NCBI GenBank assembly: GCA_030668875.1
Contig: DAOVER010000055.1
Coordinates: forward strand, 1 to 19,459
Length of the DNA stretch: 19,459 nucleotides
Reading direction: 5' to 3'
Source: Candidatus Heimdallarchaeota archaeon
Lineage (GTDB): Archaea; Asgardarchaeota; Heimdallarchaeia; Heimdallarchaeales; Heimdallarchaeaceae
The notes under the pieces are model-generated. The model was not told the origin of the DNA. It saw only the letters and a list, made by a program, of their open reading frames with translations, and searched no databases. The position numbers and the translations under genes were made by a program. Shown here one piece after another: positions 3,996-19,079 of this stretch. Position 1 is the stretch's first letter. Every line of letters begins with the position of its first letter.

Positions 3996-5271
3996 TTAAG
4001 CTAATACAAAATTAGTCAACCATTCCCATGAAAATAAACTTATTAACTCAAATATTTGTCTAACATTATCTGGATGAGCATCTGCTTTAATTTCCAAAAC
4101 GGCATCATTGTCTTCAGCTATGAATTCGAGTTTTGTCAAAATTTTATCCGTTTTAATTCTGTTAAAGTTCTTTGCTATATCATAAGCATGAAGTACATCA
4201 TCTTGAAGAAGCAAAGGTTCAACCATAAGTTCAATTGTATCATAGGGTTTAAACCAGCTAAATTCGTTGGATGATCCTACTGAAACTGGTTTCATCTCCA
4301 CTTTCAATTTAACAGCATTTCTTACAGTTCCAACAGCTTTAACAATTATTTTATCTTTATCCCACTTCCAAGTTATGGTATTAAACAAACCGGAATTGTG
4401 TGTCATCTCAGCTTGATTTTCTGATAAATCAAGTTTGTTAACCCGTGTACGCAGTTTATCTAGTACTTTCCCAATATCAACTGTTGCAGGTATTTTTTGA
4501 ACTTCTTCCGCTTCATAATCTCTTTCTCCTTCTGTTGAAGCAGGTATAAAGGAGATTACTTCATCAGCCGGTTTTACTACTGGAAATTTGTAATGTTCTT
4601 TCTTTAGTTTAGTAACAGGAATTAAGCTTTGCAAAATCTTGAAGCTCTCTTTTAATGATTTAATGTTTGTTTTTTTTGTTTCTAAGTAAATTGTAACAAG
4701 ATTATTACTTTCACTACTAATCTGACATTGTCTCAAATCACTCTTTTTTGCCAATAGAGGTAGAAGTTGATCATTTAAACTGAAGAAGTTCTCTGCATTT
4801 TGAAGAGGATTAACATTGATTAGTAGTGAATCATCAATATATGGGACACCAATTTCAAGGTTTTCTCCTCGGAATCTTTTATTGAAAAATCCTTCTTGTA
4901 TGATTGAACAAAACAGTGATTGAGGGAAAGAATCCATCCTAACTTCTGCTCTTAACACCAAGAAAGTTTGACTGTATTGCCCTCTACGTTCTACATTATA
5001 GCGGACATTGAGATATCGAAGGTTTCCCAGAGTTTCATTATGTGCTTGAATATCTGGGACACTTAAGCCTCCCCCTTGAGAAATAACATCTACTTCCATT
5101 TCTGGAAACTCCAACTGAATTAAGCCTGAAGCAAGCCCAGTGAATTTTTTTTTGTTTTCCTGATGTATAAATGATCATAATAATAACCGCAATGATGAAA
5201 AATACAATAGCTAAAATGATAGGCCATTCCAAGTATAATCTTCCTCCAAGAACAAATAGCTGAAGTAACAT
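3996..5271 (-). pseudogene. Single-pass membrane protein (about 424 aa when repaired) split by a frameshift in an A9 run
   Basis: ORF 5038..5286 (TM helix) and ORF 3996..5114 join in frame if the 9-T run at 5145-5153 is 8 long (..GKQKK-FTGLASGLIQLEFPEME..). May be a sequencing error. Start 5271 or 5286. Confidence 0.75.
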
Positions 5272-5363
5272 ATAAATGTAATTCAATAAAAATCAGTTCG
5301 TACTCTAGGGGACATTTGTTGAAAACTTATTTTTATTAGTTTGATTTCTATGTTTACTTGAAA

Positions 5364-5764
5364 ATGATCAACAAAAACAATAAAAATGAGGATGAATGGA
5401 GGAAAGAATTAACTTCTAAGCAATTTAGAGTTCTTCGTCTTAAAGGTACAGAAAAACCATTCACTGAGAAGTTTTGGAATCATAAAAAGAAAGGAGTCTA
5501 CAAATGTGCTGGATGTGGAACAATATTGTTCGATTCTAATACAAAATTTGATGCAGGTTGTGGTTGGCCTAGTTTTAGTTCAACAATTAACGAATCTAAT
5601 ATTGAAGAAAAGACAGATAGATCTCAAGATATGGTTGAACAGAGGTTCTATGTAAAAATTGTGGAGGACACCTAGGACATGTTTTCGATGATGGTCCTCA
5701 ACCTACAGGATTACGATTTTGTATAAACTCTGTCTCCATAGATTTTGATAAGAAAGAAGAATAG
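5364..5764 (+). pseudogene. msrB: Peptide-methionine (R)-S-oxide reductase MsrB with a 1-nt deletion
   Basis: LRLKGTEKPF, CAGC, KFDAGCGWPSF in the first frame; [31 protein letters not shown] to TAG 5762-5764 in a shifted frame. Adding one base between 5636 and 5637 restores M-V-R-T-E-V. Confidence 0.92.
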
Positions 5765-5790: not shown

Positions 5791-6351
5791 TTACCCTTGC
5801 AATTTCCTTCTAAGATTCAATAATTTCCATTTGTAGAACATCGTGATTGCCTGAGCTAGAACTTTAGGTGCTTTCAGACCAATATTTTTCTCCATGTAGT
5901 GAGAAAGTAGGATTGAAATCTTTGCGTCTATTGTTGTAATGACACAATAAGGTTGAGCAAATCTTTTTTCGGGTGTAAATACAGAAACATTAGAAATTTG
6001 TTTCCACGAGTATTTCTTTACGCCTTTTCTTTCATCAGTAATGTAAAGCCCATCTTTTGTTAATAAATAGGTATTCTTATCTCGAGAAGAATAGTTTACC
6101 AAAAATATCACTTGTACTAAACCCACTACTCCGATAACTACTCCCAAAACTGCGATATAAACCGACCAAGTATTTCCCAAAAAGGGTAAAGAAATACCTA
6201 AGAGCACACCAGAAATTACTAGTAAAGTGGCTAGCCTGAAGACTATACTCCAAATGGTTTTTGGTACTAGAAGTAACTCTGAATGCCTTGTTTTATGTTT
6301 TCTCATTCTAATATCTGGGGAGATCTGCTCAGTTGATTCTTCAGACGACAT
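5791..6351 (-). CDS. Two-TM membrane protein with a PH-like cytoplasmic domain
   Basis: Two hydrophobic helices, then YLLTKDGLYI...KKYSWKQISNV, a pattern typical of prokaryotic PH-like domains. Start 6351 or 6363. Confidence 0.65.
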   Translation of the reverse strand: MSSEESTEQISPDIRMRKHKTRHSELLLVPKTIWSIVFRLATLLVISGVLLGISLPFLGNTWSVYIAVLGVVIGVVGLVQVIFLVNYSSRDKNTYLLTKDGLYITDERKGVKKYSWKQISNVSVFTPEKRFAQPYCVITTIDAKISILLSHYMEKNIGLKAPKVLAQAITMFYKWKLLNLRRKLQG

Positions 6352-6467
6352 AACAATCAGCATTACGATTTACAGTTTAATTTAATTAACCTAAATAAAA
6401 GATTACTTCTCTTTCAGTGGAAAGAATTCAACAATGTTTATTAGTTATAGACAGTAAACCTATCAAG

Positions 6468-6923: not shown

Positions 6924-7322
6924 TTACTTCTTCTCTTTCTTTGTAGGAACAATCAGAACCTCATCTATATCAGTAATGTTTTTTATTTCTTTCTCTTTCC
7001 AAAGGAGAAGAATTTTGTTTAGAAGTTGTTTAAATGTTTCGTGTTTATCTTTGGGTAATGCTTCAACTTCAAGAACAATTGGTGTTGCCCCCTTCCTTAG
7101 TTTGTATACTTTCACCTTTCCTTCTCGCTCTTGTTCAATAATCCCCTGATTCTCAAGAACTTCTAAATGGTGGTAAAGATTGTATCGAGATTCATCTAAA
7201 GATTGTTCCAGATCTAAAGTAGTTTGATTTTTCTCTTTTAATTCCTCTACAATAGCTTTCCTTGTAGGATGGCTAACGGAGGAGATTTTCTTGGGAACAC
7301 GTTTTCTTCTTTCTTCTTTCAT
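6924..7322 (-). CDS. ArsR-family winged-HTH transcriptional regulator
   Basis: SHPTRKAIVEEL...SRYNLYHHLEVLENQGIIEQEREGKVKVYKL; SD-like GAGGAG before ATG 7322. Confidence 0.88.
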   Translation of the reverse strand: MKEERRKRVPKKISSVSHPTRKAIVEELKEKNQTTLDLEQSLDESRYNLYHHLEVLENQGIIEQEREGKVKVYKLRKGATPIVLEVEALPKDKHETFKQLLNKILLLWKEKEIKNITDIDEVLIVPTKKEKK

Positions 7323-7345
7323 GCACAATCTCCTCACAAAAGCTG

Positions 7346-8317
7346 TTATTCAGCTTTGTCCTCCTTCTTTTTCATGGATTTCATCTTTTGAGCAGCTATA
7401 TTTTTCTGTATAAAATCAACTGAGGATTGAGCTGATTTGAAAGAAGCGGTATCAATTGACTTGAACTTTTCTTTCATTTCTTCAGGAGCCATATCATAGT
7501 ATTTACCCTCTACAGCATTAGATGCAGCCATCTTATCCTTCTTATCTCTTGTCTCAGTTCTTTGGAGATAGAAGTGGCTGATCATATGTATAACTTTACC
7601 TTCTCCATGTTCAAACTCTACTATTACTGGACTCTCTCCATATTTTTTCTTAAGTTCATTAGAATAAACGAGAACTTTAACATTCTTCTTGTCGAGTATC
7701 TCTATTGGGTAAGACGAACCTTCTAGCCACCAAAGTGGGTCTCCATCTGCTTCTAGAAAACCTTTTACTATAGGGTTATCTGGATCCTTAACTGTTATTC
7801 TTACAACTTCATCCCCGGTAGGCTGTTGATTATATTTTACTTTATCTGGAAATCCTTTCTCCAGAACATTCTGAAGAGCCCAATCAGTAGTAATCAATAA
7901 ACCACCTTCACGAACGAAAGTTACTAGCTTTCTTATTGCTTTATCACTTATATTTCCAGGACAATTGATGAAAACAGTTTGATCAGGTCGGTAATTTACT
8001 GTTTCTGCGGAATGCTCAGGGATAACTACATGAGGAATGTCTGCTAATCTAAGAACAAACTCACAGTTATCGTATCCTCCCTGAACAACTATGACATTAC
8101 TCTCATCTACCTCATCCAGAGCTACAGCCATTTCTGGTTCTTCCTCTCTCAGTTTTGTTTTTGTATACCAAGATGAAACCTCGTATGAGTTTTTCATTTG
8201 ATTGTATTTATCATCATCCTTATCCACGTTCTTAGGTACCCCTTTAGACTGGATATTTTGGAATGATTTTAAAACTTCTTCTTGACTGATATTTTTTTGT
8301 TTTTTTTCGTCATTCAT
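7346..8317 (-). CDS. Uncharacterised protein, probable class I glutamine amidotransferase-like fold
   Basis: 323-aa ORF; VFINCPG followed by FVREGGLLITTDWA, and GEGKVIHMISHF near the C-terminus, resemble GATase1-like beta/alpha repeats. Confidence 0.55.
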   Translation of the reverse strand: MNDEKKQKNISQEEVLKSFQNIQSKGVPKNVDKDDDKYNQMKNSYEVSSWYTKTKLREEEPEMAVALDEVDESNVIVVQGGYDNCEFVLRLADIPHVVIPEHSAETVNYRPDQTVFINCPGNISDKAIRKLVTFVREGGLLITTDWALQNVLEKGFPDKVKYNQQPTGDEVVRITVKDPDNPIVKGFLEADGDPLWWLEGSSYPIEILDKKNVKVLVYSNELKKKYGESPVIVEFEHGEGKVIHMISHFYLQRTETRDKKDKMAASNAVEGKYYDMAPEEMKEKFKSIDTASFKSAQSSVDFIQKNIAAQKMKSMKKKEDKAE

Positions 8318-9142: not shown

Positions 9143-9814
9143 TTATTTCAGTAATACCAAACTTCTAACCATTTCTGCACAATCTTCAATCAAATCAGAT
9201 GATAGCTCAATGTCTCTTATAGCGTGATCCAAAACGATTAATGCACCTGCAGGCACATCTTTTGTAGAATACGCTAATTCATATTTCAATTGTCTGTAGT
9301 TTTTATCGATTTCTGTTTCTATTTCACTTACTTTCTCAATCTTTTTCACTAGTTCTTCATGTTCAATAGAGAACATCGAATCGAATACCTTTGTAAAACC
9401 TTGAACTTCATCTACCAATAGCTCAAAATTGGACTTGAGAATCCGAATTATACTCTCAGGAAATTCTTGTTTTATTAATAGTAGAAGGTTATTTGTCCCT
9501 TGTTTTATTCTTCCTGCAGACTTATCTGCAAGTCTTATGAAGTTTATAAGATCTGTTCTCACATATTCTGGCATACGACCCTCTGAGAGCATATCAAGAA
9601 TATCTGCTTCAACTATATCAGCTGTCTTTTCTTCTTGATGAATCAAATCGTACATGTTTTGCGCCGCTTCTTCATCTTTATCTGCCCAAAAAGTATAGAA
9701 GTCCCTAGCCTTAGTAATACAGCTGTTAACAAGAATCAGATGTTCTCGAATCTTCTTTAAAACTTTAGATTCTCTCCTTTTGCTCAACCAGTATTTTAGC
9801 TCTTTATTGCTCAT
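9143..9814 (-). CDS. DUF47 / PhoU-like phosphate transport regulator
   Basis: All-helical; EEKTADIVEADI, RTDLINFIRLADK, IETEIDKNYR, SDLIEDCAE acidic repeats. GAGGTG SD precedes ATG 9814. Confidence 0.85.
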   Translation of the reverse strand: MSNKELKYWLSKRRESKVLKKIREHLILVNSCITKARDFYTFWADKDEEAAQNMYDLIHQEEKTADIVEADILDMLSEGRMPEYVRTDLINFIRLADKSAGRIKQGTNNLLLLIKQEFPESIIRILKSNFELLVDEVQGFTKVFDSMFSIEHEELVKKIEKVSEIETEIDKNYRQLKYELAYSTKDVPAGALIVLDHAIRDIELSSDLIEDCAEMVRSLVLLK

Positions 9815-9882
9815 CTTTACACCTCTCATTTCTATTAATTGTAAATTCTCTTTTCTCTAAATAACTAATATCCATTATTTGA

Positions 9883-10980
9883 TTAAATCTCTTTCTCATC
9901 TTTCTCATCCTCTTCAATGGGGAAAACTCTAAAATCACCTTTATCTGTAGCAAACAAAACTTTACTCCCTTCAGTTAAAGGAACATTTTTCCCAATCAAT
10001 TCTTTTGCTTTAATTACTTGATTAAATGCAATTAAATCAACATCATAAAACTCTCCCACACACTTTGTTTTGATAATCTTAGCTTCTATATTATTATCAT
10101 AAGTTATTTTCCCTCTCTCTGAAATAGAATGTATATCTACTAACTCTGCTGGAATGAGAGCAACTGCCTTTGTACCAGATATCAATTCAGTTTCAATCTC
10201 AATCTTGTTATCTTCAGCAATGAGAAAACTCTGGTTATTCTCCTGTAAAATTATTCCCTCTATTTCTGTAGTTTCACCTAAGAAGTTTGCAACATAGATT
10301 GAAACTGGATTATTGTAAACTTCTTCAGGAGTTCCAAATTGGACAATGGCTCCATCTTTAAACACGGCTATCTTATCAGCTACTCTCATAGCTTCTTGCG
10401 TATCATGTGTCGCATGGATACAAGTTAAACTAAGATCTTTCACTAAATTCCTAAGCTCAACTTGAAGTATCTCCCTAATTTTTGCATCTAGGGCACGTAA
10501 TGGATCATCCATCACCAGTAAGTTAGCATTTGAGACAATAGCCCGAGCTAAAGCAACTCTTTGTTTTTGACCACCGCTAATCTCATCAGGGAAATTCATT
10601 TCCTTGCCTGTTATATTAATTAATGAGAACATTTCACGAGCTATTTGTCTAGACTCAGATAGATCAAGATTCTTAACAGTAGGACCAAAAAGAACATTCG
10701 ATTCAACATTCATTCGTGGGAACAAGTTGTACTCTTCAAATACAAAACCAACATTTCTGTCTTCAGAGGGTTCCTTTGTTACATCCTCACCATCAAACAA
10801 AATTCTTCCTTTGGAGGGAGATAAAAGTCCTGCTACAAGGTACATAGTAGTGGTTTTTCCTGACCCAGTTGGTCCTAGTACAGCTAGATATTCACCATCC
10901 TCAATGGAGAGATTGATGTTTTCTACTCCTCTTCTTTTTCCATAATATTTGGTAATATCATCTAGTTCTACTTTTACCAT
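9883..10980 (-). CDS. ABC transporter ATP-binding subunit 2 (CysA/PotA/MalK-like, C-terminal TOBE region); Walker B Glu replaced by Asp
   Basis: GPTGSGKTT, ISGGQKQRVALARA, LLVMDDP, IHATHD. Confidence 0.93.
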   Translation of the reverse strand: MVKVELDDITKYYGKRRGVENINLSIEDGEYLAVLGPTGSGKTTTMYLVAGLLSPSKGRILFDGEDVTKEPSEDRNVGFVFEEYNLFPRMNVESNVLFGPTVKNLDLSESRQIAREMFSLINITGKEMNFPDEISGGQKQRVALARAIVSNANLLVMDDPLRALDAKIREILQVELRNLVKDLSLTCIHATHDTQEAMRVADKIAVFKDGAIVQFGTPEEVYNNPVSIYVANFLGETTEIEGIILQENNQSFLIAEDNKIEIETELISGTKAVALIPAELVDIHSISERGKITYDNNIEAKIIKTKCVGEFYDVDLIAFNQVIKAKELIGKNVPLTEGSKVLFATDKGDFRVFPIEEDEKDEKEI

Positions 10981-10983
10981 AAG

Positions 10984-12090
10984 TTACATCTCCAGTGCTG
11001 AAGCAACACCTTCTTCAGGATATTCAAAACATCTTGTTGAAGAAGGATCAATCACCAACCTCACCTTTTCATTTTCCTTGAAACGAATAGGATGTTTGGC
11101 GTGAATTTTGACTTCTACAATCTGTTGATTTTCAAGTTTAACTCTAACTCTTCTTAATAATCCTAGAAATTGATCTCTCACTACCACTCCTGGTAGGAAG
11201 TTTCCTGTTTTAATTTTATCTTCATATTTGTGTACTTTGAAAAACTCCCTTCGAACCGCTACAACCGCTCTTCTACCTCTTGAAATACCCATGTTTTTGA
11301 CTTTGATAGTTGATTGACCAACTCTTACTTCTGCAAAATCTTCCTTATCATTAAGAACGACAGATTCAAGAAAATCTGATTCACCAACGAAGAAAGATGT
11401 GAAGATATTGTTAGGTGTAAAGATCAAGTCAGATGCTGTTCCCAGTTGTACAAGTTTTCCTTTGTTCATCACAGCTACTTTATCACTAATTGTCAATGCT
11501 TCAGACTGATCATGGGTAACATGGATAGCTGTTAATCCCTCCTTCTTAACTAAGTTTCTAAGGAATACTTGAAATTCTTCTCTTATTTTTTGATCAAGTG
11601 CGCCTAGTGGCTCATCTAGAAGAAGAATTTTTGCTTCTGAAGCGATTACTCTAGCTAATGCTGTTTTTTGCCAGTCTGGTGCTGATAAGGAAGGAGGATA
11701 AAGTTCTGCTTTGTCATCAATTTGAACAGCTTTGAGAGCGTGATCTACTAATGAATCAATTTCACTGTTTTTTCTCCCTCTCACCCTGGGACCATAAGCA
11801 GCATTTTCCCATACAGTTAGATGTGGAAATATCGCAAAATGTTGGAAAACAAATCCAATATTTCTATCTCTTATACTTAAATTTTCAACGGATTTGTTAT
11901 CGAAATAAATATTACCTTGAGTAGGAAGGATAGTACCTGCTAGAAGACGTAAAGTTGTAGTTTTACCACATCCACTCGGACCAATTAAACTTACATACTC
12001 TCCATCTTCTATGATGAAACTAAGATCCTTAACGGCTTCCACTTTTCTACCGAAAATCTTCGTTACACTCTGAAGTCTTATCTCAGGCAT
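10984..12090 (-). CDS. ABC transporter ATP-binding subunit 1 (CysA/PotA/MalK-like, C-terminal TOBE region); degenerate signature motif
   Basis: GPSGCGKTT, LSAPDWQKTALARV, ILLLDEPLGALD, IHVTHD; overlaps the permease stop by 8 nt. Confidence 0.93.
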   Translation of the reverse strand: MPEIRLQSVTKIFGRKVEAVKDLSFIIEDGEYVSLIGPSGCGKTTTLRLLAGTILPTQGNIYFDNKSVENLSIRDRNIGFVFQHFAIFPHLTVWENAAYGPRVRGRKNSEIDSLVDHALKAVQIDDKAELYPPSLSAPDWQKTALARVIASEAKILLLDEPLGALDQKIREEFQVFLRNLVKKEGLTAIHVTHDQSEALTISDKVAVMNKGKLVQLGTASDLIFTPNNIFTSFFVGESDFLESVVLNDKEDFAEVRVGQSTIKVKNMGISRGRRAVVAVRREFFKVHKYEDKIKTGNFLPGVVVRDQFLGLLRRVRVKLENQQIVEVKIHAKHPIRFKENEKVRLVIDPSSTRCFEYPEEGVASALEM

Positions 12091-13813
12091 CTTTCTTCCT
12101 CCTCGTTACTAATCTCAACAATATTAGCATGACAAATGATATGATTATCAGTATCGTTGACGCAAATGCTGCAGCTGGAAACGTTGATGCTTCAAAGAAG
12201 TCAACAAGTAAGACAGGAATAGTTCGTTCTATTCCCATACAAATTATCGTTGCTCCTGTTTCACTCATCGAACGAGTGAATGTCATTATTGCAGCTGCAA
12301 TAAGTCCACTTTTCAAGAAGGGTAAAGTCACCGTTCTGAAAGCTGTAATTTTTGAAGCTCCAAAGGCTGCAGCAGCTTCATCATACATGGTAGAAATGGA
12401 ATCAAAGGACCCTATCAATGGTCTCACGCAATAAGAGTACGTGAAAGAGATATGGGCAATAACTATCATAGCAAAACCAGGTGATAGTATATGTAAACCA
12501 TTAGACCCCCAAAGGAAAAATATACTGAATCCTAATGCTGAGCTTGGTATAACTAACGGTATATCTATCAACCCATCTAGAAATCCTTTGACTTTGTTAT
12601 TTTTCATTTTGGAGATCATTAAGGCCATCGGAGTGGCTATTAACAAGTTTACAATCGTAACTATTAGTGCGATTTCTAATGACGTTACCAGTGCCGTCAT
12701 TATATCGTTGATTTTCTTATCAGGTGCTAGGAATACTTGATAAATCATCCCCGCTTCAAATTCGCCTGAGAAAGGAGACCCTCCCCACCATTGGAATAAG
12801 AAGACTATAACAAACAAAGCGGGAATAAAAACAAAAAGCAAGAAGAGTGCAATGGAAAATGTATTTCTTGTTCTAGTAACCTTCTTTGAGCTTAATTTTC
12901 TTTCAAATCTTGGAAAAACCTTGTTCCATGGAAGTCCTACCCTTCTTGCGAAAAGCCTAACAAAAGTAAGGAGTATTAAACTAATTATAATCAGTATAAA
13001 AGCAAGAAATGCTGTTGTTGGAATTTTTAGTCCTTTCATCCAACTAACTATGACTACAGGAGCTGTTTGATACACTCCACTAACTATTAATGTTGCTCCT
13101 GTTTCACCTAAAGATCTTGTAAAAGCTAAAACTGTTCCCGCCAACAGTCCTTCTTTAACCATAGGCAAAGATATCATTCGTGCAATAGTAAAAGGAGGTG
13201 CCCCCAATGTTTTTCCAGCTTTTTCTAAATTTAAGTCCAAATCTGCGATGATGCCTTTTATTGAACGTGTAACATAAGGAAAAGTGAAAGCAACATGGGC
13301 AAAAATTATGAGTAGTGTACCTTGTGAAGCGAAACCTACTTGAGAGTTGTACAATCTTGAAATACCATTATTTGTTCCCCAAAAAAGATAGACAGAGAAA
13401 CCTAAAGCACTAGTAGGAACAGCCATTGGTAAGTCCACCATTGTGTCGAGAATACTCTTTCCTTTGAATTCGTATCTGGCCAGAATCCAAGCCATAGGAA
13501 CGCCTACAACTATATCAAATACAGTTACAATAGCAGCAATTTCGAATGACAAACCAATAGATCTTAACATAGAAAGAAAAGCTTCATTTCCTAAAATTGG
13601 GTCATTGAAGACAGTTTCATTAATATCACCCCAACTGACAATTATCTGAAAAAGCAAGTAAAGTATAGGCCCTAAGACAATTAGGATAAATATACCAACT
13701 GTCACTGCTTTACCAGCTGAAAGGACGGTATCTTTCGACAACCATTTTTCGGAAGCAAGTAAACTTCTTCTGAATTTGACTTCCAAATCAGGTTTCTCCT
13801 CTCCAGCTGACAT
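12083..13813 (-). CDS. ABC permease with two fused TMDs (CysT/CysW/ModB/WtpB-like)
   Basis: Internal duplication: MAVPTSALG / LVIPSSALG, FAHVAFTFPY / IAHISFTYSY, EKAGKTLGA / DEAAAAFGA (EAA loops), FTRSLGETGAT / FTRSMSETGAT. Confidence 0.92.
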   Translation of the reverse strand: MSAGEEKPDLEVKFRRSLLASEKWLSKDTVLSAGKAVTVGIFILIVLGPILYLLFQIIVSWGDINETVFNDPILGNEAFLSMLRSIGLSFEIAAIVTVFDIVVGVPMAWILARYEFKGKSILDTMVDLPMAVPTSALGFSVYLFWGTNNGISRLYNSQVGFASQGTLLIIFAHVAFTFPYVTRSIKGIIADLDLNLEKAGKTLGAPPFTIARMISLPMVKEGLLAGTVLAFTRSLGETGATLIVSGVYQTAPVVIVSWMKGLKIPTTAFLAFILIIISLILLTFVRLFARRVGLPWNKVFPRFERKLSSKKVTRTRNTFSIALFLLFVFIPALFVIVFLFQWWGGSPFSGEFEAGMIYQVFLAPDKKINDIMTALVTSLEIALIVTIVNLLIATPMALMISKMKNNKVKGFLDGLIDIPLVIPSSALGFSIFFLWGSNGLHILSPGFAMIVIAHISFTYSYCVRPLIGSFDSISTMYDEAAAAFGASKITAFRTVTLPFLKSGLIAAAIMTFTRSMSETGATIICMGIERTIPVLLVDFFEASTFPAAAFASTILIIISFVMLILLRLVTRRKKDA

Positions 13814-15064
13814 TTATTTTCTCCTCCTTCGTTTGTAAATAACTGAAAGGATTACTAGTGATGTAAGCATAATAGGAACCAGTAGAACAGGATCTAACCC
13901 TACTTGCCAGTATTCAGCATCCTCATTCTTCTCTATTGTTGTTGCTCTTGTCTTTAACCACAGATCTGGTATTCTATCCAGAACTTCTCCATCAGTGGGT
14001 ACGTTAAAACGAGGTATAGAAATGTTTAACTGAACACCATTTTCAGGTTTGAATATTTTTTCCATTTCCGCAACTACGTCAGGGTCGTCTTTAATTGTCT
14101 CATTACCAGGACGAAAACCAAATGGAATAGACACCTTTTGTATCTCTTTACTCATTAAGAAGGTTTCAAATTCAGAAGCTGCAAAAGATTCATCTGGAGT
14201 TACCCATGAAGCATTTAAAATAACTATGGGATGGTCACTCCACAGTGTTCCTTCTTCCGGGTAAACTGCGACTATATTATCTCCCCATTTGGCAAAAGCT
14301 TCTCCATCTTTTGCTGTTTCAATAATCAGGTTCTCATATAAAATTATAACATTGATAGCTGACGGTCCTAGCTGAACTGCCTGTTTTGCAAGAAAACCTG
14401 TTGAAGTTCCATAAAGAACTGCTTTAGATTCTACTTTTTCAAGCCAATCTTGTATAACTACATTTTTTAAATCAGCTAATTCAATTTCATCTGGAGATTT
14501 CCCACTTGCACCAGTAATCTCCAGTAAAACAGCCATAAAACCTGAATTTGATTCTTGAGCTGAGGTGTGAGCTAATTTTAAATTATCTTCAGCTAAATCA
14601 TATAAATCAGAAAGTGAGGTGAAGTTGTTTTCATCACGAAAACTCTGCCATGTGGCAAGAACTATTGGTGAAGCTACTAGAGATTTAATTTGGTTTAAGT
14701 CTAAAACTGATCCCCCAAACTTCTTTTCCCACGCCCAATCGAATAATGGTATCCATACATTTGCTGCGGGACTCCATATGGTAGGCTTACTTTCTCCAGA
14801 TAGGATTGATAACATAGATGTTCTCGTACCCTGAACTTCAAACTGGAGTCTAACAGTTTTACCAGGATTCCTTTCAGCAAACCATTCAGGAAAATCGGGA
14901 GCAATAGAGTTTATCCAACCTTTTTTCTCACTCGTGTAAAGAACGTTCAAAACAATTTCATCTTTATCTCCTCTAAATTGAGCTTGACGTATAATATCAA
15001 GAGCAATTAATGATGAGATAAGTAGTACTACGGCAATAATTGTTGGAAGTTTTGATTTCCCCAA
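13814..15064 (-). CDS. Extracellular substrate-binding protein with N- and C-terminal hydrophobic anchors
   Basis: Motifs YTSEK, PTIWSPA, SPIVLATW, SNSG, YGTSTGF, YPEEGTLWSDHP, GFRP; TTG start after AAGGGGA; C-terminal TM helix plus KRRRRK. Confidence 0.88.
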   Translation of the reverse strand: MGKSKLPTIIAVVLLISSLIALDIIRQAQFRGDKDEIVLNVLYTSEKKGWINSIAPDFPEWFAERNPGKTVRLQFEVQGTRTSMLSILSGESKPTIWSPAANVWIPLFDWAWEKKFGGSVLDLNQIKSLVASPIVLATWQSFRDENNFTSLSDLYDLAEDNLKLAHTSAQESNSGFMAVLLEITGASGKSPDEIELADLKNVVIQDWLEKVESKAVLYGTSTGFLAKQAVQLGPSAINVIILYENLIIETAKDGEAFAKWGDNIVAVYPEEGTLWSDHPIVILNASWVTPDESFAASEFETFLMSKEIQKVSIPFGFRPGNETIKDDPDVVAEMEKIFKPENGVQLNISIPRFNVPTDGEVLDRIPDLWLKTRATTIEKNEDAEYWQVGLDPVLLVPIMLTSLVILSVIYKRRRRK

Positions 15065-15267: not shown

Positions 15268-15736
15268 ATGAAAGCTATCCTAACTTCAGTTTACGACAGA
15301 CAAACAAATCCATTGTACTGTAGACTCTTTAGTCGAGGTCTATCAATCCACATAAAAATTGGCAGTCAGCAAATTTTGATGGATTTTGGAATGATTGGTT
15401 CAGTTTTAGTAAGAAATATGAAAAAGCTGGAAATTGATCCTAATAAGATTACAAAAGCCCTTTTATCACACGGACATGCAGATCATATTTGGGGATTGAA
15501 GTCTTTTCTTAATCTAAGGAATAATTCAAGAAAACTTCCATTATATCTTCATGATGTCTATTTCAAGAGAAAAACTTGTAAGAATTGTTGATTTTTTGAA
15601 GGAGAAATACAGTGAAACTGAATTCTATCTTAATCACACGATTAGTAGATTAGCATGGGTTACCTTAAGAAAAAAACTTGGTGAGGAAAAAATTCATCAT
15701 TTTAAAATGGGGAAAAAAATTATTTTTGATTGTTAA
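15268..15736 (+). pseudogene. MBL-fold metallo-hydrolase (methanopterin-synthesis-like MBL family) with an internal deletion and frame change
   Basis: N-terminal part RGLSIHI..ILMDFG..NMKKLEIDP..LLSHGHADHIWGL; C-terminal-like part (REKLVRIVDFLKEK..LNH..LGEEK..FKMGKKI) in another frame; the central region expected for the family is absent. Confidence 0.7.
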
Positions 15737-16451: not shown

Positions 16452-17219
16452 CTATTTCTTTTTAGTTATTTTTTCCACTATGTCTGTAATTTCACTTGGC
16501 ATAAAAATAACTATTTTCTCACTAGGATCTTGAGCAATATCTCTAATTGTTTGCAAAGTTCTTAATTGCAAAGCACCACGTTCTGTAGAAAGCTTCTTTG
16601 CAGCCTCTGCGAGGTTGTGAGATGCTTTTAATTCTCCTTCAGAGTGAATAATAACAGCTCGTTTTCCTCTTTCAGCCTCAGCTTGTTTTGCAAATGCTCT
16701 TTTCATTTCAGCAGGGAGCTCAATCTCTTGAATTTTAATTGCTTTTATATCGATACCCCATTCATTTGTTTCTCTATCAACACTCTTTTGGATATCTATA
16801 GCAATTTGGTCTCTTTCTGTTAGGACTTGATCAAGTTCAAGTGTTCCCATTGTATCACGTAAAGCAGCTTGAGTATACTGTCTAACAGCATAAACATAAT
16901 TCTCAATTTTAATTACAGCATCTTCAGGTCTCTCAACCTTAAAGTAGACCACAGTATTTGCAAGAACAGGTATATTGTCTCTTGTCATTAATTCTTGTCT
17001 TGGAATGTCTTGTGTTATAATCCTCATATCTACTTTTTTAGAAGTTTCTATTATTGGAATTATATAGACTAATCCCGGACCAGTAGTTCTAGTATATTTT
17101 CCTAATCGGAAAATTACTAATCTTTCATATTCTAGCATGACTCTTATACCTGATAATAACCAGATACCTATGAATAACACTACAATACATACACCAACGA
17201 AAATGTACCAATCAGCCAT
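16452..17219 (-). CDS. SPFH / Band 7 stomatin-family membrane protein
   Basis: N-terminal TM helix; EYERLVIFRLG, GPGLVYIIP, VDMR, TRDN, WGIDI, AKQAEAER, ALQLRTLQT. Confidence 0.95.
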   Translation of the reverse strand: MADWYIFVGVCIVVLFIGIWLLSGIRVMLEYERLVIFRLGKYTRTTGPGLVYIIPIIETSKKVDMRIITQDIPRQELMTRDNIPVLANTVVYFKVERPEDAVIKIENYVYAVRQYTQAALRDTMGTLELDQVLTERDQIAIDIQKSVDRETNEWGIDIKAIKIQEIELPAEMKRAFAKQAEAERGKRAVIIHSEGELKASHNLAEAAKKLSTERGALQLRTLQTIRDIAQDPSEKIVIFMPSEITDIVEKITKKK

Positions 17220-18206: not shown

Positions 18207-19079
18207 TCAGCCTGATAAATCTTCTATAATATCGTCTATTGATTTTTTTAATTCATCAATCTGTGGTGTTTGTTCAGCTTCTGTAAGAGTTTCTGCTGCT
18301 TCTCTATAATATTCTAAGGCTTTGGCGTTCTTTCCCTCTTTTTTAAGTAGCTCTCCAACGGTTTTAATATTGCTAAAATGAATACCTCGGTGTTTCTTTG
18401 TAAAATTCGTTCTATCTATTTTATTGGGGGTAAAATTTTCTAGATAATCTAGATTTGCTTTGAGAAGAATATCATCGTACATTAGTTCATCGTGACCTGA
18501 CACAAATGTTTCCACATCTCGAGTAAGATACTCTCTCAAGCTGTTTGCATATTCTGGAACATTCAATATTCGAATATAAGGGAAGGGTGATTCTAGATTA
18601 TCTCCAACAATGAGAACCTTATCAACTGAATCGTAACAAGATGAAGAATCAGCTGTATGTCCAGGTGTATGATAAAATTCTACTCCGTCATCAGAAAAAA
18701 CCAATCTTTCTTTGAAGTCTGTATTTGGTATGACCAGCTTTACATCACCTTTTTTATGTGCTTCAAATTGTTTCAGATCATCGTTTCCGGTCTTCTTTAA
18801 TTCTTTCACACAAAGTTCATGGGCAAGGATTATAGAATTTTCAAACAATTGATTCCCCCAGATATGATCATAATCATAATGAGTATTGAAGACAACGATT
18901 TCTTTGTCCTTAACGCCTTCCTTATCCAAGAAATTCAAAACTTCTTTCATAGGGTCTGGACCAAGAAATGTATCACAGATGAAAATTCGATTCTTTCCAT
19001 TTATTACATAGAGAGTAGTGAAGTAAGGATCATCAAAAGAGAAAAAATATCCTCTAGTACCTACTTTGGTAGCTTTCAT
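18207..19079 (-). CDS. MBL-fold metallo-hydrolase with C-terminal TPR-like helices
   Basis: CDTFLG, NTHYDYDHIWGN, HTPGHTADS, VGDNLE, SGH; tail GELLKKEGKNAKALEYYREA. Confidence 0.88.
   Translation of the reverse strand: MKATKVGTRGYFFSFDDPYFTTLYVINGKNRIFICDTFLGPDPMKEVLNFLDKEGVKDKEIVVFNTHYDYDHIWGNQLFENSIILAHELCVKELKKTGNDDLKQFEAHKKGDVKLVIPNTDFKERLVFSDDGVEFYHTPGHTADSSSCYDSVDKVLIVGDNLESPFPYIRILNVPEYANSLREYLTRDVETFVSGHDELMYDDILLKANLDYLENFTPNKIDRTNFTKKHRGIHFSNIKTVGELLKKEGKNAKALEYYREAAETLTEAEQTPQIDELKKSIDDIIEDLSG

Follow-up and report, generated by a model that had tools for sequence, protein, structure and literature searches.

A type I ABC importer encoded by an uncultured Heimdall-type Asgard archaeon probably has only one ATP site that works. 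The explanation preferred here, taken as a whole, is considered likely: one operon would encode an importer driven by a heterodimer of two different ATPases, in which one composite site (site 1) hydrolyzes ATP and the other (site 2) is degenerate. The window (the whole stretch of DNA that was analyzed, 19,459 nucleotides) carries the following genes.

9143-15064, minus strand: whole operon (anchored binding protein, fused permease, two TOBE-type ATPases, PhoU_div)
13814..15064, minus strand: substrate-binding protein, 416 aa (Pfam SBP_bac_11, E 4e-11)
12083..13813, minus strand: fused double permease, 576 aa (Pfam BPD_transp_1, two stretches)
10984..12090, minus strand: ATPase 1, 368 aa, with TOBE-type C-terminal domain (translation, Pfam, motif location)
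9883..10980, minus strand: ATPase 2, 365 aa (translation, Pfam, motif location)
9143..9829, minus strand: PhoU_div (DUF47) protein (Pfam PF01865, E 1e-15)

This block is read as a single operon for a type I ABC importer because its genes abut or overlap: by their open reading frame coordinates, the binding-protein and permease genes abut, the permease and ATPase 1 genes overlap by 8 nt, and the two ATPase genes lie 3 nt apart. The marks of a type I importer found in it are a BPD_transp_1 permease (PF00528 in two stretches, E 6e-28) with one EAA coupling loop readable from the sequence in each of its two halves, a dedicated extracytoplasmic binding protein within the operon (SBP_bac_11, directly upstream), and ABC ATPases with the five standard motifs (PF00005, E 3e-31 and 2e-32). 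A scan of the operon for bacterial promoters and terminators, whose consensus is the wrong one for an archaeal host, gave counts no higher than the shuffled expectation.

The motifs of the two ATPases, from Walker A to H-loop, are as follows.

11956-11982, minus strand: ATPase 1 Walker A, GPSGCGKTT (motif location)
11836-11847, minus strand: ATPase 1 Q-loop, FQHF (motif location)
11671..11688, minus strand: ATPase 1 signature, LSAPDW, replacing LSGGQ; predicted contribution to the degenerate site (motif location)
11611-11625, minus strand: ATPase 1 Walker B, LLLDE (motif location)
11611..11613, minus strand: ATPase 1 catalytic Glu, E160, predicted part of the consensus site (invariant in 44/44 pairs)
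11509-11517, minus strand: ATPase 1 H-loop, THD (motif location)
10849-10875, minus strand: ATPase 2 Walker A, GPTGSGKTT (motif location)
10729-10740, minus strand: ATPase 2 Q-loop, FEEY (motif location)
10735..10737, minus strand: ATPase 2 Glu, E82, at the Q-loop Gln position (non-Gln in 40/44 pairs)
10567..10581, minus strand: ATPase 2 signature, ISGGQ, predicted to complete the consensus site with the ATPase 1 Walker motifs (SGG kept in 44/44 pairs)
10504-10515, minus strand: ATPase 2 Walker B, VMDD (motif location)
10504..10506, minus strand: ATPase 2 Asp, D159, at the catalytic-Glu position (motif location)
10402-10410, minus strand: ATPase 2 H-loop, THD (motif location)

Translation and motif location reproduced every coordinate of the first-pass annotation, which had described an ATPase 1 with intact Walker A, Walker B, and H-loop and the signature LSAPDW, and an ATPase 2 with a canonical ISGGQ and Asp for the catalytic Glu in VMDD. 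The replacement of the Q-loop Gln by Glu in ATPase 2 is an extra deviation beyond that description, located on the same side and in the same composite site.

In an ABC dimer, either ATP site combines four elements of one subunit (Walker A, Walker B, Q-loop, H-loop) with the signature of its partner. Placed in a heterodimer of ATPase 1 and ATPase 2, all three deviations would fall into one composite site, with the other site fully consensus; the annotation had assigned both defects then recognized to the same site, and in 44 gene pairs sampled across Asgard archaea the deviations are confined to one composite site. Most likely, ATPase 1 and ATPase 2 sit on the fused permease as an obligate heterodimer in a 1:1 ratio. 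Hydrolysis would take place at the fully consensus site 1, formed by the Walker side of ATPase 1 and ISGGQ of ATPase 2. Site 2 would be degenerate, as it would combine LSAPDW of ATPase 1 with the Walker half of ATPase 2, which carries the Asp and Glu replacements; it probably still binds ATP, because ATPase 2 of this genus keeps the A-loop aromatic, P-loop Lys, Walker B Asp, H-loop His, and D-loop, and its hydrolysis would be slow or nil. One ATP would be spent per cycle, and site 2 may serve a structural or regulatory purpose, as a hinge of the TM287/288 exporter type.

When changes were counted on the tree of the 44 pairs, five consensus-site positions (Lys, Gln, catalytic Glu, and His of ATPase 1 and SGG of ATPase 2) had 0 changes and the degenerate site had at least 11. 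The latter comprise at least one loss of the ATPase 1 signature, at least three replacements each of the ATPase 2 Q-loop Gln (by E, D, or A), catalytic Glu (by D or Q), and H-loop His (by Q or N), and at least one replacement of the ATPase 2 Walker A Lys by Pro, in a family of Kariarchaeaceae type in which the A-loop aromatic is gone too. All further losses concern Walker-side residues of ATPase 2, sparing those of ATPase 1 and the ATPase 2 signature; K43, Q83, D159-E160, and H193 of ATPase 1 do not vary among 53 relatives. At the catalytic-Glu position of ATPase 2, the whole Heimdall family has D, another family and locus L050 have Q, and E is found elsewhere.

The ATPase 1 signature is non-SGG in 25/25 pairs of the order and in 40/44 pairs across the phylum, and in most members Ala-Pro followed by an acidic residue stands where the signature glycines were. 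In 40/40 pairs with a non-SGG ATPase 1 signature, ATPase 2 lacks the Q-loop Gln, which is retained in three SGG-intact pairs and one mild variant (LSRGAQ). Co-occurrence of the substitutions in orthologous pairs thus came out as predicted at first pass; signature loss and Q-loop loss have essentially one origin, hence represent one event and not many replicates. The degenerate pattern does not arise by chance: it is kept in 16 of the 23 same-genus genomes that hold the pair and, varied in form, in 40 of the 44 phylum-wide pairs.

Local decay toward pseudogenes in a metagenome-assembled genome, or errors of assembly, might be suspected in a source genome of 99 contigs with an estimated completeness of 92%. 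Both ATPase frames, however, are open and full length, and the same motifs occur in independent assemblies whose proteins are 72-94% identical. Purifying selection acts on both genes: a comparison of five close genomes gave a dN/dS of 0.085 (ATPase 1) and 0.105 (ATPase 2), values that exclude decay. Orthologue comparison refutes local decay, and the probability left to decay or misassembly is negligible; these ratios, together with conservation over several Asgard lineages, uphold the earlier argument for selection.

A heterodimer could also have two catalytically active sites, with Asp and Glu sufficient at site 2 and the odd signature an adaptation, so that the asymmetry would exist in sequence alone. 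The intact Walker A of ATPase 2 in this genus and the other site 2 residues it keeps agree with this, as do the retained signature Ser in LSAPDW and the conservative nature of the substitutions; Asp-for-Glu and Glu-for-Gln are conservative swaps, and some hydrolysis may occur at site 2. In sister lineages, however, the Walker A Lys, A-loop aromatic, or H-loop His is gone or Gln stands for the catalytic Glu, losses which suggest that hydrolysis at site 2 is dispensable for the family. The Ala-Pro-acidic replacement of the signature glycines in most members also speaks against two active sites, and in TM287/288 Asp for Glu is held responsible for the hydrolysis block (PMC3971661). Two active sites are therefore regarded as improbable relative to a heterodimer with one working site.

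Alternatively, each ATPase could be its own homodimer, the two alternating on one permease by condition or one of them serving another transporter. The closest solved relatives by sequence (MalK, PotA, GlcV, CysA, ModC, and FbpC; E 1e-65 to 1e-43), which likewise have an ATPase domain with a C-terminal regulatory domain and work with the same permease family, are known under single ATPase names, mostly with two chains per entry, and related archaeal operons manage with one ATPase gene. An ATPase 1 homodimer, however, would have two degenerate signatures, and an ATPase 2 homodimer would be without catalytic Glu and Q-loop Gln and, in one family, also without the Walker A Lys; the invariant SGG of ATPase 2 and the invariant Walker side of ATPase 1 make sense only jointly. 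Moreover, the two genes are adjacent at 44/44 loci examined, beside one fused permease. Independent homodimers are, on these motifs, unlikely, and only a very small probability is given to them. In the tree, orthologues of ATPase 1 and of ATPase 2 fall into two distinct clades whose internal branching matches, and the C-terminal domain diverges faster in ATPase 2 than in ATPase 1.

Unlike MalK-type homodimers with two identical consensus sites, the heterodimer proposed here would stem from a duplicated gene whose copies share 35% identity and carry complementary defects. The first-pass statement that MalK/CysA/ModC-type importers normally use symmetric homodimers fits the solved relatives, described as single-ATPase systems, but asymmetry is not foreign to importers. 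Heterodimeric ATPases are normal in DppDF-type type I importers. For RbsA and NupO of Bacillus subtilis, sequence analysis suggests one degenerate ATP site; these proteins, of CUT2 and Bmp type, have a deviant signature and a second Walker A without Lys and are classed as type II-like (PMC11466899). The importer in the window resembles RbsA and NupO in having one degenerate site; unlike these, which are fused in one polypeptide, it has separate subunits, ATPases of another clade, and a type I permease.

Sister operons in archaea have the fused permease and PhoU_div in common with the window's type, and a clade with 100% support unites the ATPases of both; they differ in having canonical ATPases in place of the degenerate pair. 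The Bathyarchaeota-type operon (L033) has one canonical ATPase, as do loci L044, L049, and L051; other archaea (L035, L052, and L055) have two canonical ATPases in reversed gene order. Deep-branch support is 81-90, and the tree leaves the precedence of the two-canonical and degenerate classes unsettled. A family series may be drawn up tentatively, its probability falling a little short of even: a one-gene homodimer, two canonical ATPases, a site 2 that binds ATP and does not hydrolyze it, and a site 2 without P-loop Lys and A-loop aromatic, with PhoU_div acting on the C-terminal domain of the catalytic subunit.

One consensus and one degenerate site occur together in several ABC exporters, among them TAP1/2, CFTR, and MRP1. 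In TM287/288 the Asp that replaces the Walker B Glu faces the degenerate signature (PMC3971661), the state to which the earlier annotation had likened Glu-to-Asp opposite a degenerate signature and with which the window's pair agrees. As in TM287/288-type exporters, two non-identical ATPase domains would have their deviations in one composite site and leave the other strictly consensus (PMC3971661; PMC7756269). In contrast to heterodimeric exporters, whose ATPase domain is joined to a transmembrane fold of type IV, free TOBE-type ATPases would here act on a BPD_transp_1 permease; the likeness appears to be mechanistic and does not imply descent. In the full-text literature searched, degenerate sites are described for exporters and for the fused RbsA and NupO; no such description was found for split importers of TOBE type, and the importer family described here was absent from it. 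The design is well known in exporters and, within that literature, would be apparently new for a split TOBE-type importer.

If the proposal is correct, a type I binding-protein-dependent importer completes its cycle with a single ATP-hydrolyzing site, and a degenerate-site design treated as an exporter feature in the reviews consulted would have arisen independently in free-standing ATPases of Asgard importers. The number of ATP molecules spent per importer cycle and the equivalence of the two sites are still debated, mostly on the basis of engineered homodimer mutants. The same importer family would offer identical sites, two different consensus sites, one impaired site, and one that hardly binds nucleotide; side-by-side expression of these versions would allow direct tests, in an importer, of stoichiometry and of what the second site does.

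The binding protein has an N-terminal helix and a C-terminal membrane anchor that ends in KRRRRK. Its AlphaFold model (mean pLDDT 92) has a type II periplasmic-binding-protein fold, and this model points to a cluster-D, sulfate-binding-protein-like fold. Top Foldseek matches are the sulfate-binding proteins 5um2 and 1sbp; binders of phosphonate, polyamine, sugar phosphate, and ferric iron follow with nearly equal scores, all in the range of 12-18% identity. An Atlas look-up gave sulfate-binding-like clusters and nothing else, and by sequence the protein had zero matches in the PDB up to E 1. The permease matches NCBIfam models of ModB/CysT/WtpB-like type in two stretches; it passes the ModB cut-off (182.6) only as a sum over both, at 216 bits. 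Identity with the molybdate, tungstate, or sulfate importers ModABC, WtpABC, or CysPTWA was rejected for want of orthology of permease and binding protein, since the permease passes only when summed, both ATPases score far under all NCBIfam equivalog cut-offs, and the binding protein, at 12-18% identity to all solved binders, matched none of the NCBIfam models.

PhoU_div is a conserved operon companion across the importer family and a distant relative of PhoU. Like PstSCAB-PhoU, the operon has its genes in the order binding protein, permease, ATPase, PhoU-like gene; in contrast to that system, the parts include zero Pst orthologues and the ATPases have the TOBE domain that PstB lacks, PstB working as two identical subunits (PMC12976172). 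The idea that PhoU_div is lost together with the P-loop Lys was rejected, as a family search found PhoU_div upstream, not downstream, of the operon in the family that lost the P-loop Lys.

In complex modelling, PhoU_div was the only scored partner, set against the pair of ATPase 1 and ATPase 2; it scored 0.65 (best control 0.00), a mark reached by 58/80 solved complexes and 2/110 mismatched pairs, with at least 80% contact agreement between runs and a partner pLDDT of at least 82. The predicted contacts involve ATPase 1 residues 244-274 and 321-322 only, and their conservation does not exceed that of the remaining C-terminal domain (0.44 vs 0.43). The model supports docking of PhoU_div on the ATPase 1 C-terminal domain, and binding there could regulate the catalytic subunit, a secondary lead from the model. 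If so, PhoU_div regulation would act specifically via the C-terminal domain of the sole catalytic subunit, and DUF47/PhoU_div gains a concrete candidate partner.

Five genes lie close together on the minus strand of the window; Pfam identifies them as follows:

13814-15064, minus strand: SBP_bac_11 binding protein gene
12083-13813, minus strand: fused double permease of 576 aa, with BPD_transp_1 in two stretches
10984-12090, minus strand: ATPase 1, with ABC_tran and TOBE_2
9883-10980, minus strand: ATPase 2, with ABC_tran
9143-9829, minus strand: PhoU_div (DUF47) gene, 228 aa

The permease gene, read as a fusion because one protein contains both BPD_transp_1 stretches, directly follows the binding protein gene and shares 8 nt with the ATPase 1 gene; the ATPase 1 stop and ATPase 2 start are 3 nt apart, and a gap of 53 nt separates ATPase 2 from the PhoU_div gene. 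The nearest NCBIfam models are PhnT2, PotA, GlcV, CysA, and WtpC for both ATPases, which fall far under every equivalog cut-off, and ModB, CysT, and WtpB for the permease; the closest named proteins (93% identity) are from Candidatus Heimdallarchaeaceae assemblies. The source genome consists of 3.2 Mb in 99 contigs, with an estimated completeness of 92%.

ATPase 1 has consensus GPSGCGKTT, Q-loop Gln (FQHF), LLLDE, and H-loop His motifs, and ATPase 2 has GPTGSGKTT and the H-loop His. Translation and motif location reproduce exactly the motif coordinates of the first-pass annotation, which overlooked the last feature listed here:

11671-11688, minus strand: deviant signature of ATPase 1, LSAPDW
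10567-10581, minus strand: signature of ATPase 2, ISGGQ
10504-10506, minus strand: Asp at the catalytic-Glu position of ATPase 2 (VMDD)
10735-10737, minus strand: codon for Glu in place of the Q-loop Gln of ATPase 2 (FEEY)

ABC dimers are arranged head-to-tail, with the signature of one subunit opposite the Walker side of the other. This geometry puts the ATPase 1 signature opposite the ATPase 2 Walker side, so the three deviations (LSAPDW in ATPase 1, Asp and Q-loop Glu in ATPase 2) are predicted to share one composite site, the other site being fully consensus; the earlier placement of the first two in a single site thus holds and gains a third. The alternative that ATPase 1 and ATPase 2 work as independent homodimers, which the first-pass annotation had named as fatal to its reading, is argued against, since no ATP site would be competent in a homodimer of either subunit. 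In the preferred heterodimer reading, ATPase 1 and ATPase 2 would be obligate partners on a fused, intrinsically asymmetric permease, and ATP would be hydrolyzed only where the ATPase 1 Walker side meets the ATPase 2 signature; the second site would hold ATP, or nothing in some lineages, and its role would be that of a hinge or a regulatory contact. In this scheme the rates of hydrolysis, the nucleotide occupancy of the sites, and the stoichiometry are inferences.

In an orthologue search of 40 related genomes, the ATPase 1/ATPase 2 pair turns up in 16 of 23 from the genus and in 8 from three other families of the order. ATPase 2 always adjoins ATPase 1, and the fused permease lies beside the pair wherever the contig extends that far. 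The signature and Q-loop substitutions co-occur, co-occurrence in orthologous pairs being a check that the first-pass annotation had proposed: a non-SGG ATPase 1 signature (LSAPDW, LSAPDK, LNAADL, VAAADL, LDAPDL, and others) and Glu for the ATPase 2 Q-loop Gln (motif table) are found together in 25/25 pairs. At its catalytic position, ATPase 2 has Asp across the whole genus, Glu in two lineages, and Gln in another family of the order, f3, where it also has Pro in place of the Walker A Lys (GxxGxGPS). Paralogous single-ATPase systems of the same order have canonical motifs throughout. Protein-database searches widen the degenerate ATPase 1 clade (LSAPEL, LTAPQL, LSGPEL, FANPGL, and others) and add to the ATPase 2 clade members from assemblies labelled Kariarchaeaceae, Hodarchaeota, Helarchaeota, and Asgardarchaeia. 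Among 50%-identity representatives, searched exhaustively, such deviations occur in at least 18 clusters resembling ATPase 2 and in about a dozen resembling ATPase 1, and a phylum-wide genome search with fetched loci adds 15 further pairs.

In Kariarchaeaceae-type ATPase 2 proteins (loci L019-L024; proteins P0170, P0173, and P0178), the Walker A Lys is replaced by Pro and the catalytic Glu by Gln, and the A-loop aromatic is absent; LSGGM, D-loop, and H-loop are retained. Loss of the Lys and the aromatic while these three motifs stay makes the subunit look like a nucleotide-free partner.

Mapping of 44 pairs on a tree of concatenated proteins, from which the motif columns were taken out, shows how one-sided the change is. 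The Walker A Lys, Q-loop Gln, catalytic Glu, and H-loop His of ATPase 1 and the SGG of ATPase 2 are invariant in 44/44 pairs (0 changes), whereas the degenerate site has at least 11 changes: loss of SGG in ATPase 1 (1), and in ATPase 2 Q-loop to E/D/A (3), catalytic Glu to D/Q (3), H-loop His to Q/N (3), and Walker A Lys to Pro (1). ATPase 2 proteins without the Walker A Lys are missing the A-loop aromatic as well. This imbalance indicates that different lineages disabled the same site by different routes, leaving the consensus site untouched in all. In the window genus, ATPase 2 retains the A-loop Tyr, P-loop, Walker B Asp, H-loop, and D-loop, which fits a site that would bind ATP and hydrolyze it poorly. 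Among five genomes (dS 0.33-0.62), pairwise dN/dS averages 0.085 for ATPase 1 and 0.105 for ATPase 2; both genes are under purifying selection, in keeping with the earlier claim of selection rather than decay. ATPase 2 evolves somewhat faster, above all in its C-terminal domain.

In a maximum-likelihood tree the whole family splits from PotA-like outgroups (100% support), and the orthologues of ATPase 1 (96%) and of ATPase 2 (90%) form clades with matching internal branching order. Three operon types occur:

PhoU_div, fused permease, and one canonical ATPase: Bathyarchaeota-labelled contigs
Fused permease, two canonical ATPases (opposite order), and PhoU_div: e.g., loci L052 and L055
Degenerate pair: e.g., a five-gene operon of the same makeup on a Helarchaeota contig

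Because relatives have one or two canonical ATPases, the degenerate pair appears to be a derived state in a family for which symmetric sites work as well, the order of the deep branches being left aside. The single-ATPase operons of Bathyarchaeota-labelled contigs L033 and L034 (PhoU_div, fused permease, ATPase) have no binding protein gene within 6 kb; related binding proteins are nevertheless present in Bathyarchaeia assemblies.

TAP and CFTR are parallels to the design with one consensus and one degenerate site. The heterodimeric exporter TM287/288 has Asp in place of the Walker B Glu in its degenerate site (PMC3971661), a replacement shared by the importer. Degenerate ATP sites are discussed in the literature for exporters and have already been pointed out in RbsA and NupO, two fused importer ATPases; in DppDF, a heterodimeric importer ATPase, the catalytic Glu has been engineered in each subunit (DppD E179Q, DppF E187Q). 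In the literature searched, neither a split TOBE-type importer that has a degenerate site nor this archaeal importer family is described. The degenerate-pair reading of the importer is well supported by comparative evidence.

Nearly all variants of the importer have a linked PhoU_div gene, which lies downstream in the Heimdall family and upstream in f3 and the Bathyarchaeota type. When a complex of three chains is predicted and PhoU_div is scored as the partner, the result is 0.65 versus 0.00 for the best control, a mark reached by 58/80 solved complexes and 2/110 mismatched pairs in a calibration on single-chain pairs. Runs share at least 80% of contacts, partner pLDDT is at least 82, and the score falls to 0.00 when ATPase 1 is replaced. 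Confident contacts involve only residues 244-274 and 321-322 in the C-terminal domain of ATPase 1, and these residues show no unusual conservation. The prediction supports binding of PhoU_div to this domain and offers a lead that PhoU_div may be a regulator acting on the catalytic subunit. On a Helarchaeota contig (L031 1690-2682, minus strand), a 330-aa gene with a MazE/AbrB-type DNA-binding domain and PhoU domains is located upstream of the same five-gene operon, in divergent orientation; its product is a candidate transcriptional regulator of the importer.

The modelled binding protein (pLDDT 92) has a cluster-D binding-protein fold nearest to sulfate-binding proteins; phosphonate, polyamine, sugar-phosphate, and ferric binders match it nearly as well (12-18% identity). 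Together with the ModB/CysT-like permease and PhoU-like companion, these matches make an oxyanion or phospho-compound a reasonable guess, no more, for the substrate.

Just upstream of the operon, a 107-aa ORF (15268-15591, plus strand) matches only positions 34-70 of the 196 in the metallo-beta-lactamase profile (E 1e-7) and is probably a gene fragment; a full-length Lactamase_B gene is at 18207-19079 (minus strand). The 105-aa ORF at 5358-5675 (plus strand) matches SelR/MsrB positions 1-77 of 116 (E 4e-28) and would encode a methionine sulfoxide reductase B that is either short or C-terminally truncated. Four minus-strand ORFs have no Pfam match at E 0.001: 2-2176 (725 aa, running off the window end), 3996-5114 (372 aa), 5791-6363 (190 aa), and 7346-8317 (323 aa), the last directly upstream of an ArsR-type HTH gene (6924-7337). 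The window (16452-17219, minus strand) and an unrelated contig with the same operon type (L036 4910-6085, minus strand) each have a Band_7/SPFH gene close to the importer operon, a proximity that may be coincidence.
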